From a virus (lineage: Duplodnaviria; Heunggongvirae; Uroviricota; Caudoviricetes), in the IMG/VR virus record IMGVR_UViG_2531839239_000021: a stretch of DNA of 4,423 nucleotides, one strand, 5' to 3'. The position numbers were made by a program, and so were the translations under genes. Below, one piece after another: positions 458-4,096 of this stretch (the stretch's first letter is position 1; every line of letters starts with the position of its first letter). A model generated the notes under the pieces. That model was not told the DNA's origin. It ran no database searches and was given only the letters and a program-made list of their open reading frames with translations.

Positions 458-1549
458 TCACCCCCTGAATCCCGGCGGAATTTCGGTATCCGGTTCAGAA
501 ATATGATTCACACAACGCTGGTTGTTCGTGCCGCTTACCGGGAGCAACCAGGGGTTTTCAAAATTCCGGTCCGGCCCAAAAAACGTCGTCGCTCGCTGAA
601 CAAATTCCGTTCCCGCTTTCCCGGTCGCCGCCAGGTATCTCGCGTAACGCCTCACACCATCCAGCATGGTCTCTGGTGGCACCCCCTCGCGCAATCTGGC
701 CTTCCAGGCACTGAAAGCGGATTTCTTCGGGTTTGCCCCAGCACGCAACGGGTATTCCCGCCAGACCTGTTCGAACACATCCGGATAATCCACTCGTCCC
801 ACAGACTGCCCGGTGCTTTCCGGGACTACCCGATCGGCTTCCCGCTGAATGGCGGAATCGGCTTCAGGCTGCTGCAGTTGGTGTGATTGCTCCGACCCTG
901 CGGTCATCACCTGCTGCACAGCGCCCGAATCGGCTTCCGGTGTCGTGCCTGCTGGCTGACCAGGATTGACGGTCTGAACATCCCCTGCCTGGTTCGTGGT
1001 GTTTTTTTTGCCATGAACCATAGTGTTTTTGTCCTGTTCCTGTTCTTTCTCCTGCTCCTGTTCCTGTTCTTGGCTTCGAAGCCCCTTAAAAGCCCCTTCG
1101 AAGCCCCTTACCGAATTTCGGCTATTATTCCGCCTCACATCCAGATGGAAATCCGTTTTATATCTGTCGTAAAACACTGACAGAAAAGCGTTTTCAGGTA
1201 ATGATGCATACTCATTCCTGACACCTGCACAACGGTTATCGCCAGGCTTCAACGTTTCCCCAACCTGCCAGGCTGCCATTTCATGGACCCAGACCATCTC
1301 TGCATCATGGTCATAGCTACAAAAACCAGCTTCAACAGCCCTTTTAAGCCCCTTTGAAGCCCCTTCCAGACCAAGCCCGGTTTCATGAGCAAGGTATAAA
1401 ACTGGCAGGTAATACAAACCCAGCATATTTGCGTGAGGGGATGTCATCAGGTAAAAAGCAACAACTTGCGCTTCTGCACCCGCCTTTCTAAGTTCTCTCC
1501 CCGTTTCTCCCAGCCAGAATCGCGGAGAAACTTTTGCGTAATCACGCAT
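458..1549 (-). CDS. Phage replication initiator / replisome organizer (lambda O-like role), about 363 aa; alternative upstream ATG at 1660 would give 400 aa
   Basis: Long minus-strand ORF 458..1660. I prefer ATG 1549 (MRDYAKVSPRFW...) because it is preceded by GATGAGGTAGCC (GAGG, 5-nt spacer), whereas ATG 1660 has no SD. Stop TGA (460..458) lies inside the SD of the downstream DnaC-like gene, implying coupling. It sits immediately upstream of a helicase-loader gene and contains internal DNA repeats like the origin inside lambda O. The C-terminal region (AFSAWKARL...GVRRYARYLAATGKAGTEFVQRATTFFGPDRNF) resembles phage replication-initiator C-terminal domains as I recall them; exact family not verified. 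Confidence 0.8.
   Translation of the reverse strand: MRDYAKVSPRFWLGETGRELRKAGAEAQVVAFYLMTSPHANMLGLYYLPVLYLAHETGLGLEGASKGLKRAVEAGFCSYDHDAEMVWVHEMAAWQVGETLKPGDNRCAGVRNEYASLPENAFLSVFYDRYKTDFHLDVRRNNSRNSVRGFEGAFKGLRSQEQEQEQEKEQEQDKNTMVHGKKNTTNQAGDVQTVNPGQPAGTTPEADSGAVQQVMTAGSEQSHQLQQPEADSAIQREADRVVPESTGQSVGRVDYPDVFEQVWREYPLRAGANPKKSAFSAWKARLREGVPPETMLDGVRRYARYLAATGKAGTEFVQRATTFFGPDRNFENPWLLPVSGTNNQRCVNHISEPDTEIPPGFRG
1033..1068. repeat. Tandem hexamer repeat (CCTGTT-like x6) inside the replication initiator gene, encoding an EQ-rich linker (QEQEQEQEKEQEQ)
   Basis: Plus strand 1033..1068 = CCTGTT CCTGTT CTTTCT CCTGCT CCTGTT CCTGTT. Units are multiples of 3, so the minus-strand reading gives an alternating Glu/Gln low-complexity segment. 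Confidence 0.85.
1076..1110. repeat. Candidate iteron cluster B: three tandem copies of AAGCCCCTT (minus strand AAGGGGCTT), period 11-12 bp
   Basis: Exact AAGCCCCTT at 1078..1086, 1090..1098 and 1101..1109. The 11-12 bp period is not a multiple of 3, so successive copies are read in different frames; conservation is therefore at the DNA level. Confidence 0.6.
1336..1365. repeat. Candidate iteron cluster A: two exact and one degenerate copy of AAGCCCCTT, period 11 bp
   Basis: CAGCCCTTT at 1336..1344 (degenerate), AAGCCCCTT at 1346..1354 and 1357..1365. Same 9-mer as cluster B, about 250 bp away, both inside the replication initiator gene. Confidence 0.6.
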
Positions 1550-1766
1550 GGCTACCTCATCTGGTGCCGAACCTTCCTCCGGATATAATCTGTGGTTCCC
1601 AATCGACAGAACCAGAGGAGGTTCGACATGTATTTTTTGAAAAGCCTTTATCAGGCTCATGTATTAAATGTTGCAGCAACAAACCGCTGGTGTAACAGCC
1701 CCGAAATGCTCCCGGATTACAGAGCCTGGCTGCGCGCCGAAACATACCTTCGTCTCGACATATTGA

Positions 1767-2276
1767 TTAGCGAACTTCAAAAAGAGACTGCATCCATTCA
1801 TAACCTTCAGGGTATCGACGCTGTTCGCATTCTGGTATCGCGCCATAGTGCTCTCTCAATAATTGAAGTGCGTCATCTCTCTTTTTCTGAACTGATTTTC
1901 TTGCTTCAACCAGCTCTGGAATCAGCGAATATCCCGCCGGAAGTGATCCAATACCCACCTCATGTTGACGAGCAGTTACAAGATGTGCCATACAACCAGC
2001 GTGCTGGATTGACTCCCTGCTCAGAGGCTGAATGGGATCACTCTCTGCTGAAGAAATACCAAGATTTGTATAATCCTCAATAAGCCCGGCACACGCTTCT
2101 GCATCAGCCAGCTTTATTCTGGTTTCCTTGCGCTGTTCTCTGGCTGACAAACGCCAGAGCAGCGCATTAGCTTTATGTATCAACCACTCTGCCAGCTCCA
2201 CATCAGATAAACCGCCACGCCAGATGTGCGGACTGTTTTCGTAAACGCTCAGTGTCAATTTTTTGTCATTACTCAT
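1767..2276 (-). CDS. Hypothetical protein, 169 aa, between the YdaT-like gene and the replication initiator
   Basis: Minus-strand ATG at 2276 (MSNDKKLTLSVYENSPHIWRGG...), 13 nt after the YdaT-like stop, with a weak GGGT upstream; the track's GTG at 2327 would overlap the YdaT-like gene by 38 nt. Co-directional with the flanking operon. In the first 60 codons about 64% of first codon positions are purines (33% G), which is gene-like. No family recognised. It competes with antisense plus-strand ORF 1592/1628..2083, so confidence is moderate. Confidence 0.55.
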   Translation of the reverse strand: MSNDKKLTLSVYENSPHIWRGGLSDVELAEWLIHKANALLWRLSAREQRKETRIKLADAEACAGLIEDYTNLGISSAESDPIQPLSRESIQHAGCMAHLVTARQHEVGIGSLPAGYSLIPELVEARKSVQKKRDDALQLLREHYGAIPECEQRRYPEGYEWMQSLFEVR

Positions 2277-2289
2277 ATTTATTACCCAA

Positions 2290-2715
2290 TTAATGCACAG
2301 CCAGAGTGTTTCCTGCCGGGCCACCACGATTCATCTGATCGAACAGAACGATCGCTGATGCAACGAAATCATCAATATCTTTCACCAGCCGTTCCTTCGT
2401 CTCTACCAACTCCCGAAAATAAGCGGAACTGTGGCTGCGCATTCGGGCCACCAGCGGAGGCGGCATCGCTTTTTCGATCGCTGGTAACAACGCCTGAATT
2501 TTTTTAACCGCATCAGGAGTGTCTTTCTCCACCCAGCGGAAAATTTTCTGAGTATTGCGAGCCATGGCTTCCGGATGGCTGTCGTCATACAGTTCCGGGA
2601 ACGTCATTCCCAGCTCGAAATACGCTTTGGTAATTTTCGCAGCCGGTACTTTTTCGCCGTCCGGATGCGCCCAGACATTCATCGCCATGCGGATGTGTTC
2701 ATGCTTGATTTTCAT
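2290..2715 (-). CDS. ydaT: YdaT-like protein (Rac-prophage YdaT family; reported as the CII-equivalent of Rac-type switches), 141 aa
   Basis: Minus-strand ORF MKIKHEHIRMAMNVWAHPDGEKV...NTLAVH. The start ATG shares the 4-nt ATGA overlap with the stop of the upstream YdaS-like gene (2715..2712). The N-terminal MKIKHEHI and the position directly after a ydaS-like gene match my recollection of Rac YdaT; family call from memory, not a search. Confidence 0.65.
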   Translation of the reverse strand: MKIKHEHIRMAMNVWAHPDGEKVPAAKITKAYFELGMTFPELYDDSHPEAMARNTQKIFRWVEKDTPDAVKKIQALLPAIEKAMPPPLVARMRSHSSAYFRELVETKERLVKDIDDFVASAIVLFDQMNRGGPAGNTLAVH

Positions 2716-3014
2716 GAATCAACTCCATCAGATAAGCATGCACTACAATCACCTTCAGCATGAACTACATGTGTTTGCCCCAAACGAATGCCGCTCGCAT
2801 ACTCAGGCCAAATAAGCTCCCAATCATGGGGTCGTAGCTCCGCCCTACTTACTTGGCCTTCCGTCGCAGATTCGATCATAAGGGCGCGGGTTGGAGATAT
2901 AGCTGTTCGTCCAGACGCCATTTGCGATAAGTAAGATGGCGATACACCAAGTCTGGCCGCGAATTTCTTAGCATCACCAACCCTTAATGATTTAATAAAC
3001 TCTTTTAATGTCAT
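2712..3014 (-). CDS. ydaS: Cro-like HTH regulator of the YdaS family, 100 aa
   Basis: Minus-strand ATG at 3014 preceded by CGAGGAAGGT (SD). Translation MTLKEFIKSLRVGDAKKFAARLGVSPSYLSQMASGRTAISPTRALMIESATEGQVSRAELRPHDWELIW... aligns with my recollection of E. coli Rac YdaS (LGVSPPSVNQW...AIERATRGEVLCEELRP). Transcribed divergently from the repressor-like gene, as for cro. Confidence 0.8.
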   Translation of the reverse strand: MTLKEFIKSLRVGDAKKFAARLGVSPSYLSQMASGRTAISPTRALMIESATEGQVSRAELRPHDWELIWPEYASGIRLGQTHVVHAEGDCSACLSDGVDS

Positions 3015-3042
3015 ACCTTCCTCGGTTTAGTGTTTTTTTGCG

Positions 3043-3072
3043 AGTTTAGTGTTTAATAAACCATTAAGTCAA
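3043..3072 (-). promoter_or_regulatory. PR-like leftward promoter for the ydaS-like operon, with an embedded 11-bp palindromic operator
   Basis: Minus-strand -35 TTGACT (plus coordinates 3072..3067), 18-nt spacer, -10 TAAACT (3048..3043). The perfect odd palindrome GTTTAATAAAC (3051..3061) lies in the spacer. Predicted transcript start is about 22 nt upstream of ATG 3014. Confidence 0.55.
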
Positions 3073-3076
3073 GTAT

Positions 3077-3105
3077 TTGCTTGTTTAGTGATTACTAAAG
3101 ATAAT
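3077..3105 (+). promoter_or_regulatory. PRM-like rightward promoter for the repressor-antitoxin-toxin operon; predicts a leaderless mRNA
   Basis: -35 TTGCTT (3077..3082), 17-nt spacer, -10 GATAAT (3100..3105). The spacer holds the near-palindrome TTTAGT-GATT-ACTAAA (3084..3099). The -10 ends 6 nt before ATG 3112, and there is no SD upstream of that ATG. Confidence 0.5.
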
Positions 3106-3503: not shown

Positions 3504-3695
3504 ATGAATAGAGCCCTTTCACCAATGGTTTCTGAATTTGAAACCATTGAACAAGAAAACAGTTACAACGAATGGCTGCGTGCGAAAGTAGCAACGAGCC
3601 TTGCAGATCCGCGCCCAGCAATTCCCCATGACGAAGTTGAGCGCAGAATGGCAGAACGCTTTGCTAAGATGCGCAAGGAACGGAGCAAGCAGTAA
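3504..3695 (+). CDS. paaA: Small antitoxin of a ParE-type toxin-antitoxin pair (PaaA-like), 63 aa
   Basis: ATG 3504 preceded by GGAGGA (3495..3500). Translation MNRALSPMVSEFETIEQENSYNEWLRAKVATSLADPRPAIPHDEVERRMAERFAKMRKERSKQ. The TAA stop (3693..3695) is 1 nt before the toxin ATG. Size, charge pattern and position immediately upstream of a ParE-family gene fit an antitoxin. The track ORF 3450..3695 includes an unlikely N-terminal extension. Confidence 0.8.
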   Translation: MNRALSPMVSEFETIEQENSYNEWLRAKVATSLADPRPAIPHDEVERRMAERFAKMRKERSKQ

Positions 3696-3696
3696 A

Positions 3697-3975
3697 ATGT
3701 TACCCGTGTTATGGCTTGAAAGCGCAGATACCGACCTAGATGATATAACTAGTTATATTGCTCGTTTCGACATAGATGCGGCTGAACGCTTATGGCAGCG
3801 ATTAAGGGGTTGTGTGCTGCCGTTATCCGAACATCCGTATTTATACCCACCAAGCGACAGAGTACCTGGCTTGCGTGAGATTGTAGCCCACCCTAACTAT
3901 ATAATTCTATACCGCGTAACAACATCAAGCGTTGAAGTAGTAAACGTGATCCACGCAAGACGCCAGTTTCCCTAA
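3697..3975 (+). CDS. parE: ParE/RelE-superfamily toxin (ParE-like), 92 aa
   Basis: ATG 3697. Translation MLPVLWLESADTDLDDITSYIARFDIDAAERLWQRLRGCVLPLSEHPYLYPPSDRVPGLREIVAHPNYIILYRVTTSSVEVVNVIHARRQFP has the ParE/RelE hallmarks (W..A..DL..I..YI, GLREI, YRV, V.NVIHARR). The track ORF 3601..3975 begins at an upstream ATG inside the antitoxin gene and is not the likely start. Confidence 0.88.
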   Translation: MLPVLWLESADTDLDDITSYIARFDIDAAERLWQRLRGCVLPLSEHPYLYPPSDRVPGLREIVAHPNYIILYRVTTSSVEVVNVIHARRQFP

Positions 3976-3993: not shown

Positions 3994-4039
3994 ACATAAC
4001 AACCGCAACGACTTTATCAAAAGCGTTGTGTTTGTTATG
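3994..4039 (+). terminator. Imperfect 16-bp inverted repeat downstream of the toxin gene; candidate weak terminator or protein-binding site
   Basis: CATAACAACCGCAACG (3994..4009) and CGTTGTGTTTGTTATG (4024..4039) are reverse complements apart from two positions (one a G-U wobble in RNA), with a 14-nt loop. The stem is A/T-rich and no clean U-tract follows, so terminator function is uncertain. Confidence 0.3.
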
Positions 4040-4056
4040 TCCCGCGGTTTAGTTTT

Positions 4057-4096
4057 TACTTGACTTAAGTTTAATGTTTATTAAACTAAAAATACC
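4057..4096 (+). promoter_or_regulatory. PL-like rightward promoter/operator unit, an inverted copy of the PR-like unit at 3041..3075
   Basis: -35 TTGACT (4060..4065), 16-nt spacer, -10 TAAACT (4082..4087). Palindrome GTTTATTAAAC (4076..4086) overlaps the -10. The 12-mer TACTTGACTTAA (4057..4068) is identical to the minus-strand sequence at 3064..3075; GTTTAGT at 4047..4053 and ACTAAA at 4085..4090 echo the half-sites of the 3024..3099 region. Confidence 0.5.

Follow-up and report, generated by a model that had tools for sequence, protein, structure and literature searches.

A probable pair of convergent, overlapping antisense genes in a prophage cassette beside the replication initiator of Escherichia coli O157:H7 prophages

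In phage lambda the promoter pO lies beside the start of the replication initiator, and the oop RNA opposite cII is a short noncoding transcript that ends at a terminator. The sieB gene of lambda and P22 is expressed from the prophage and lies antisense in the early operon, and its antagonist esc is an in-frame internal product. In IS10, translation of the transposase is subject to fold-back inhibition, in which one arm of an inverted repeat lies upstream of the element's own start, the other arm covers the ribosome-binding site (RBS) and read-through transcripts are silenced. The locus considered here, which bears some likeness to each of these systems, consists of two convergent open reading frames (ORFs), one of 151 residues on the plus strand and one of 169 residues on the minus strand, in a 4,423 bp stretch of a virus assigned to the Caudoviricetes (IMG/VR record IMGVR_UViG_2531839239_000021). 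This whole stretch, referred to below as the window, is identical to a lambdoid prophage region of many E. coli O157:H7 genomes, including EDL933. Antisense overlapping gene pairs have been described in E. coli O157:H7, namely ano/ECs2385 (PMC5960689) and three further pairs (PMC9927249). A full-text literature search returned no description of the pair treated here, and looking up the locus tags of adjacent genes in the literature gave nothing of relevance.

The arrangement is probably that of a real plus-strand gene converging on a real minus-strand gene of the early operon, with 317 nt of dual-coding sequence, the two being carried together in a conserved cassette of 740 bp. The elements of this cassette, in window coordinates, are as follows.

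1550–2289, no strand assigned: mosaic cassette of 740 bp that comprises the leader and both genes, flanked by the initiator start and by the stop of the ydaT/cII-like gene
1561–1589, plus strand: putative sigma-70-type promoter, with -35 element CTGGTG (1561–1566), a 17 nt spacer and -10 element TATAAT (1584–1589)
1564–1630, plus strand: leader inverted repeat in the minimum free energy (MFE) fold, with the anti-Shine–Dalgarno (anti-SD) arm inside the promoter spacer
1616–1621, plus strand: Shine–Dalgarno (SD) sequence AGGAGG, 6 nt upstream of ATG 1628
1628–2083, plus strand: plus gene, 151 residues, ECs1072 family (NF033230; called by the Prokaryotic Genome Annotation Pipeline, PGAP)
1767–2276, minus strand: minus gene, 169 residues (phrog_8304), in the early-right operon after cro/ydaS and the cII-like/ydaT gene
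1767–2083, both strands: probable dual-coding overlap of 317 nt, with flat divergence, suppressed synonymous variation and open frames

Coding evidence on the two strands

The plus-strand ORF is a member of the ECs1072 family, with near full-length coverage by the family profile NF033230 (105.7 bits against a curated cutoff of 70, E value 2.1e-30, residues 4–145 aligned with profile positions 3–141 of 142). RefSeq, through PGAP, annotates 1628–2083 as 'ECs1072 family phage-associated protein' and leaves the minus-strand ORF without annotation. Homologues of the plus ORF were found at 87–47% identity, and a profile search produced 23 cluster representatives of the family, down to 18–30% identity, with the conserved motifs RAE..LRLD, LSF.E.L and LPPCSE.EWD; distant relatives belong to phrog_5286. 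An AlphaFold model of the plus protein is confident along the whole length, the overlapped part included (predicted local distance difference test, pLDDT, 89.5; predicted template-modelling score, pTM, 0.86), and shows an all-helical fold with no known structural relative, a structural search having given no significant match.

The minus-strand ORF is matched over its full length by phrog_8304 (398.8 bits, residues 1–169 of 169). Its homologues were found at 96–47% identity and also in distant loci, where the minus ORFs of loci L051, L053 and L067 still match phrog_8304 with 76–77 bits; a homologue search with the N-terminal 94 residues returned close relatives only. The C-terminal tail occurs in two length classes, giving ORFs of about 148–151 and 168–169 residues, and the tail motifs LG(I/L)S..DPI.P.S.EAI and P.GY.L.P(E/D)L are retained in distant homologues. 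Searches of Pfam, PADLOC and PDB sequences gave no match for either protein, and neither protein matched a profile of a known anti-phage defence or toxin–antitoxin component.

The DNA for the homologue comparisons came from metagenome assemblies and from assemblies of E. coli and Salmonella. Loci L034, L039, L040–L042, L045 and L046 have both ORFs intact. Within the overlap, codon positions 1, 2 and 3 of the plus frame lie opposite positions 1, 3 and 2 of the minus frame, respectively. In the part that only the plus ORF occupies (1628–1766), mean pairwise divergence at codon positions 1/2/3 of the plus frame is 0.33/0.22/0.56, and in the part that only the minus ORF occupies (2084–2276) it is 0.31/0.22/0.50 in the minus frame. 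Over the overlap (1767–2083) the corresponding values in the plus frame are 0.34/0.36/0.38. Each unique part shows the classic coding pattern in its own frame and the periodicity of the overlap is flat. Codon usage likewise favours the plus frame in 1628–1765 and the minus frame in 2085–2276; within the overlap the plus frame has log-odds of 0.204 and the minus frame of 0.171, which does not agree with a preliminary description of the window in which codon-position composition was said to favour the minus-strand gene.

Protein-level constraint was assessed by placing the observed substitutions of five sequence pairs at random and counting amino-acid changes. The unique parts have too few amino-acid changes in their own frame (P ≤ 0.002 in five of five pairs) and never in the opposite frame, and the overlap has a joint deficit in both frames (P 0–0.003 in four of the five pairs). 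When synonymous codons were resampled with one protein held fixed, the other frame stayed open over the 84–106 overlapped codons with a probability of 0.4–39% per lineage; it is open in every intact lineage. The fraction of identical aligned residues that are encoded by different codons, calculated over 11 loci with both ORFs, falls from 0.607 in the unique part of the plus gene to 0.365 in the overlap, and from 0.514 to 0.339 in the minus gene.

The extent to which one protein could be conserved as a by-product of the other was estimated from between-group pairs only, by holding the sense protein fixed and scoring identity in the antisense frame. With the plus protein as sense, antisense-frame identity in the overlap is 0.355, against an expectation of 0.171, and in the unique control part it is 0.195 against 0.169. 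With the minus protein as sense, the values are 0.366 against 0.154 in the overlap and 0.258 against 0.185 in the unique part. The large excess is thus confined to the overlap, where each protein is conserved at about twice the by-product expectation. Taken together, these five tests indicate that both frames encode proteins: the two ORFs look like genuine genes and the overlap looks dual-coding. The preliminary description had considered only one of the two ORFs likely to be real and had proposed a comparison of homologues of both as a way to decide; that comparison finds coding signatures on both strands (in the divergence, substitution, synonymous and by-product tests), with both frames under protein-level selection.

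The arrangement is conserved well beyond the window. In the 11 lineages measured the convergent overlap spans 257–323 nt (317 nt in the window) in the same frame relation. The viral contigs L051–L067 encode plus proteins that are about 30–36% identical to that of the window, and all carry a minus ORF of about 148–151 residues in the same frame relation with an overlap of 257–269 nt; these minus ORFs share the N-terminal motif VTL.VFK.SPHIW.GGL…LA.WL. They usually follow directly on cro or cII and precede the replication genes, and the window-type leader is present in all of these loci except L066. In loci of the L052, L054 and L058 type the antisense frame is open for about 160 codons, again in the same frame relation. 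As far as sequence can tell, the locus is therefore an antisense overlapping gene pair, with a shared stretch above the roughly 90 nt expected at least of such pairs and both frames open across homologues.

The leader, the plus gene and the minus gene form a mobile cassette that is kept as a unit in enterobacterial prophages. Homology of the window with other phages breaks off at 1549 and is found again from about 2290; in phage Evi, which has no cassette, the initiator coding sequence (Primosomal protein I) lies 71 nt from the ydaT homologue; and the same leader/plus/minus unit occurs in other prophage contexts at different sites. The cassette was found in 457 of the 5,426 complete E. coli genomes searched, and the matches listed are mostly from O157:H7 and other Shiga-toxin-type strains. 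Two scans of species-representative genomes found no relatives. In a phage collection, blastn and tblastn searches with the window cassette and its proteins gave no match, and only the distant plus-family member reached SfIV-type phages.

The plus family also exists without the partner. Salmonella loci L043 and L044 carry a plus gene with stops in the antisense frame, and gp36 of Shigella phage SfIV is a distant plus homologue with no antisense ORF. Since the plus gene thus occurs alone, it is probably the older of the two, with the C-terminal two-thirds of the minus protein having been overprinted on its antisense strand. In L047 and L048 (metagenome assemblies) and in SfIV (L100) the plus gene stands on the other side of the immunity region, where it adjoins the cI repressor gene and converges on it; members of the family thus stay close to the immunity switch without occupying one fixed slot. 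A second unit was observed directly downstream of the stand-alone plus homologue in L043 (4482–5187; also L044, 640–1174), with the same leader, a 151-residue plus-strand ORF and a convergent 138-residue minus-strand ORF overlapping by 239 nt. The motif order of these ORFs resembles that of the two families, although hhalign comparisons with them were not significant (E 0.18 and 0.015).

Leader and neighbouring genes

The minus gene is part of an early-right operon on the minus strand that comprises cro/YdaS, the cII-like/YdaT gene, the 169-residue ORF, the replication initiator and a DnaC-like loader. The stop of the YdaT-family gene lies 13 nt upstream of the minus-gene ATG. The other members of this operon are as follows.

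3014–2712, minus strand: cro/YdaS gene of the early-right operon
2290–2715, minus strand: cII-like gene of the YdaT family (PF06254; phrog_163, CII-like activator; PGAP), right neighbour of the cassette
458–1549, minus strand: replication initiator (O-like/DnaD-like helicase loader), 363 residues (phrog_1701, PGAP, megablast), left neighbour of the cassette
451–1, minus strand: DnaC-like loader gene, beyond the initiator in the operon

Between the stop of the minus ORF at 1767 and the initiator ATG at 1549 (CAT at 1547–1549) lie 217 nt (1550–1766). Rechecking of the coordinates confirmed this gap, which the preliminary description had pointed out, as well as the 151-residue ORF from ATG 1628 to the stop at 2083 that runs antisense through the ORF at 2276–1767 and shares 1767–2083 with it. 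The gap need not be regarded as unexplained, as it had been, since it is accounted for by the leader and 5' end of the annotated plus-strand gene: it holds the promoter and leader region (about 1561–1627) and the first 46 codons (1628–1766). The AGGAGG motif that had been placed at 1615–1620, 7 nt before ATG 1628, is present, but at 1616–1621, 6 nt before the ATG. It occurs once in the window. At least one AGGAGG-N4–9-ATG arrangement appeared in 31 of 200 shuffled sequences, so the motif alone is not beyond chance. Its significance comes instead from conservation across diverged homologues: GGAGGTTCGACATG is nearly invariant upstream of homologues at 44–55% (and about 30–36%) protein identity, GGAGG(T/C)TCGAC(A/G)TG is conserved in close and Salmonella-type copies of the cassette, and the GGAGG core is present in 17 of 17 aligned leaders. 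The attention drawn earlier to a strong plus-strand initiation signal was thus justified, although the signal is not unusual by itself.

The conservation extends to about 70 nt upstream of the plus ATG, which hardly vary among cassettes with a protein identity of about 50% or even of about 30%, with the consensus TGGTGCCGAACC…TA..CT…AGAACC.AAGGAGGTTCGACATG. In L043 this leader also stands in front of an ORF that looks unrelated. The T-A..C-T positions of the -10 element and the TGGTG block are invariant or nearly so across 17 diverged leaders, and the leader reads as a putative promoter of the plus gene with a weak -35 and a good -10 element and a predicted start near 1596. The anti-SD arm CCGAACCTTCCTCC (1567–1580), which lies in the promoter spacer, can pair with AGAGGAGGTTCG (1614–1625) and so sequester the SD sequence. 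The window leader folds with an MFE of -26.3 kcal/mol (z -2.7). Among 17 homologous leaders, all five bases of GGAGG are paired in the MFE structure of 13 and most of them in a further two; z lies between -2 and -5 in the majority of leaders. Register shifts between leader groups make a single consensus structure unusable, and the stem rests on individual folds. The complementarity of the spacer segment 1567–1580 to the RBS region is that expected of IS10-type fold-back, the transcription start being a predicted one.

The plus strand of the window also bears a cI-like repressor gene followed by a relB/parE toxin–antitoxin pair. This pair (3504–3975) lies directly downstream of the repressor gene on the same strand and is itself followed by a hairpin with 22 nt arms (3994–4040). 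The sole weak Rfam match in the window, mir-4703 (E 0.25), falls on this hairpin and was rejected as spurious. Repeats of the form TTTGC..GTTTAGTG.TTA.TAAA in the cro/cI intergenic region (3037–3099) are candidate operators, and an adjacent 24-mer that recurs inverted about 1 kb away, beyond parE (4063–4086), suggests a second operator site. Inside the initiator gene, AAGCCCCTT-type repeats (a 42 nt family in three copies) cluster at 1073–1114 and 1329–1381 and look like origin iterons, as in the lambda ori; they can also be read as an inverted pair and they flank an acidic EQ-repeat linker (1028–1071). Pfam and PGAP name the genes at 2290–3014 'toxin YdaS' and 'toxin YdaT', whereas they stand in the cro and cII positions and PHROGs gives a CII-like activator; the 'toxin' names look like annotation carry-over.

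Alternative readings of the locus

That there is no gap at all, the initiator really beginning at ATG 1660, would fit the in-frame ATG at that position, which yields an ORF of 400 residues, but is hardly credible. The phrog_1701 profile matches residues 38–400 only, PGAP places the start at 1549, megablast similarity to the replication genes of Shiga-toxin (Stx) phages stops exactly at 1549, and bases 1628–1660 evolve as plus-frame coding sequence. Moreover, in L034, which carries a cassette variant that is 87% identical, the counterpart of ATG 1660 is not in frame with the initiator, from which a stop separates it. The initiator starts at 1549, as the preliminary description preferred, and not at 1660, which it had kept as an alternative. 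An equally slight chance attaches to the view towards which that description leaned, that the 169-residue minus gene alone is genuine and the plus ORF lies open opposite it by chance. The minus ORF does have a PHROGs family and shares the orientation of the operon. The view is nevertheless contradicted by the match of the plus ORF above the curated NCBIfam cutoff, by plus-frame purifying selection in 1628–1766, where there is no minus coding, by stand-alone plus homologues without any minus ORF, by the confident plus fold (pLDDT 89.5) and by the invariant SD sequence and leader.

The comparison with lambda oop that had been offered, in which the plus strand would give a short antisense transcript or peptide, fits as regards the predicted topology: as at pO, transcription from the putative promoter by the initiator start would run antisense through the 3' end of the early gene that precedes the initiator, and the overlap would make the two RNAs perfectly complementary over more than 300 nt. 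It is improbable, however, that the main product is an oop-like regulatory RNA controlling the early operon with the ORF secondary to it. The ORF encodes a 151-residue protein of a curated family reaching 18–30% identity, is under protein-level purifying selection and has a confident globular fold and a strong conserved SD sequence. An RNA of the oop type was also looked for directly and rejected, there being no plus-strand intrinsic terminator in 1400–2400 and no meaningful Rfam match in the window, and the region being under plus-frame coding selection. Antisense regulation may act in addition to the plus protein. The converse of a minus-only locus, in which only the plus gene functions in the overlap and the minus gene is real only in its N-terminal 64–85 residues or so, or not at all, is unlikely but deserves more weight than the other alternatives. 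On this account the long minus tail is tolerated read-through into the antisense strand of the plus gene. It would explain why at least five lineages that retain the plus gene have a frameshifted minus ORF or none, why an 83-residue version occurs in L047 and L048, why the tail has two length classes, why confidence in the minus model is low, at the C-terminus especially, and why PGAP makes no minus call. Tolerated read-through does not readily account for a tail that is open over 85–105 codons in every intact lineage (the chance, given the plus protein, being the 0.4–39% above), for the drop in plus-gene synonymous variation from 0.607 to 0.365 exactly at the start of the overlap, for minus-frame identity of 0.355 in the overlap where plus constraint predicts 0.171 and the control is almost without excess, or for the retention of both tail motifs in distant homologues.

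Several observations weigh against two genuine genes with a dual-coding overlap and a conserved leader as described. The AlphaFold (AF2) model of the minus protein is of low confidence (pLDDT 57.6, lowest toward the C-terminus), and the minus ORF is frameshifted or absent in L038, in L047 and L048, in a clade with a deletion at 2243–2245 and in L043. The plus ORF carries nonsense mutations in the near-identical copies L032 (G1919T, E98*) and L033 (G1728A, W34*). For the overlap between the window and L034 the single-frame tests give P values of 0.37 (plus) and 0.65 (minus), and the summed counts for the two closest pairs (window–L034 and L045–L046; NN 22, NS 30, SN 30) are not significant; as the compared sequences are related, the P values of the tests are not independent of one another and overstate the independence of the evidence. 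As regards the plus-strand signals, a consensus scanner called no promoter, the -35 element being weak; no plus-strand terminator was found, as noted above; RNAalifold applied to the 17 leaders recovered a local 5 bp GAACC/GGTTC stem and no long-range anti-SD stem; and true compensatory changes in the stem are few.

Both genes decay sporadically in resident prophages. The deletion clade, for example L049 (E. coli 2013C-3277), has lost 1 nt in the AAA run at 2243–2245, which throws the minus ORF out of frame at about codon 12; this lineage has an unchanged plus protein (WP_000273724.1), and a length of 690 rather than 691 nt was seen in about four of 40 evenly sampled E. coli matches. L047 and L048 keep the minus ORF in its shortened form of 83 residues. 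L032 and L033 are natural single-gene knockouts of the plus gene, in which the minus ORF is intact despite the plus nonsense mutation; G1919T is at the same time a Pro-to-Thr change in the minus protein.

Proposed function and comparison with known systems

If the pair of real, convergent genes is accepted, its layout points to a plus gene that is self-promoted, expressed in the lysogen and mutually antagonistic with the early-operon gene that it overlaps. The plus gene would be transcribed from its own promoter, antisense to the early operon. Because it would be self-promoted and is oriented against that operon, its product would be made in the lysogen, where the early promoter is repressed, as happens with other prophage genes that lie antisense within early operons. 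Once the prophage is induced, transcription of the early operon would cross the overlap and yield the minus protein, and would shut down plus expression through convergent-transcription interference and RNA pairing; conversely, plus transcription would damp leaky early read-through into the replication genes. As the anti-SD arm precedes the predicted start, the SD sequence would be hidden in read-through transcripts only, as in fold-back inhibition of the IS10 type. In one published microarray study a 70-mer probe for ECs1072, the strand of which is not confirmed, changed 2.13-fold in uninduced cultures (PMC2241611), a weak indication of RNA for ECs1072 in uninduced cells.

A more far-reaching proposal, which is possible but doubtful, is that the cassette is a self-contained two-state module. 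The plus protein, with its new fold, would act in the lysogen on the host or on incoming phages. On induction the minus gene would switch it off, both through convergent transcription with a duplex of more than 300 nt and through an N-terminal domain that targets the plus protein, and the fold-back leader would insulate the module wherever it lands. Were this correct, the locus would represent an antisense gene pair, overprinted long ago and conserved since, in which the overlap has a functional basis. The locus also exposes a blind spot of annotation, as RefSeq keeps the plus gene only and the minus gene is represented in PHROGs by phrog_8304, and it draws attention to a conserved leader that is portable and to a protein with a fold not seen before, both next to the immunity and replication switch.

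Compared with lambda pO/oop, the locus would likewise have a promoter (the putative one with its -10 element at 1584–1589) near the initiator ATG (1549) that points into the 3' end of the preceding early gene, so that the transcripts would be complementary. It differs in that the transcript would bear a strong SD sequence and a conserved 151-residue ORF, in that no terminator was found and in that the cassette also occurs at other prophage positions. The likeness to IS10 is an analogy of layout only: one inverted-repeat arm lies upstream of the predicted own start and the other over the RBS, but here the start is predicted, the stem is bulged and covariation support is weak. By analogy with sieB and esc, the plus gene may be a gene near the immunity region that has its own promoter, is oriented opposite to the early operon and is countered by another phage product. 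The two systems are not similar in sequence or fold, esc is not an antisense gene, and no exclusion phenotype is known for ECs1072-family proteins. The SfIV gp36 protein (phrog_5286), which is about 32% identical to a plus member of the L054 type, is also encoded next to the immunity region and in opposition to the neighbouring early genes, but with a different leader and no antisense partner ORF; it therefore shows the plus gene in a non-overlapped state.

Judged from sequence alone, the locus can be classed with the antisense overlapping gene pairs that have been reported in enterohaemorrhagic E. coli (PMC5960689, PMC9927249), in which two opposite-strand protein ORFs share a long stretch of DNA and standard annotation keeps one of them. 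The frame relation and the lengths differ between those pairs and the present one. The reported pairs are mostly young, taxonomically restricted, embedded in a known 'mother' gene and supported by expression, whereas the ORFs described here are convergent, overlap in part, have unique domains of their own and are conserved to about 30% identity, the support being evolutionary. Long antisense overlaps in bacteria and phages are still disputed, most candidates being young and resting on expression data alone. This pair offers evidence of the opposite kind, in that the overlap persists with an unchanged frame relation in prophages whose proteins are only about 30% identical and the non-overlapped part of each gene serves as an internal control; the conserved overlap and these internal controls make the locus a clean natural test case for dual coding and overprinting.

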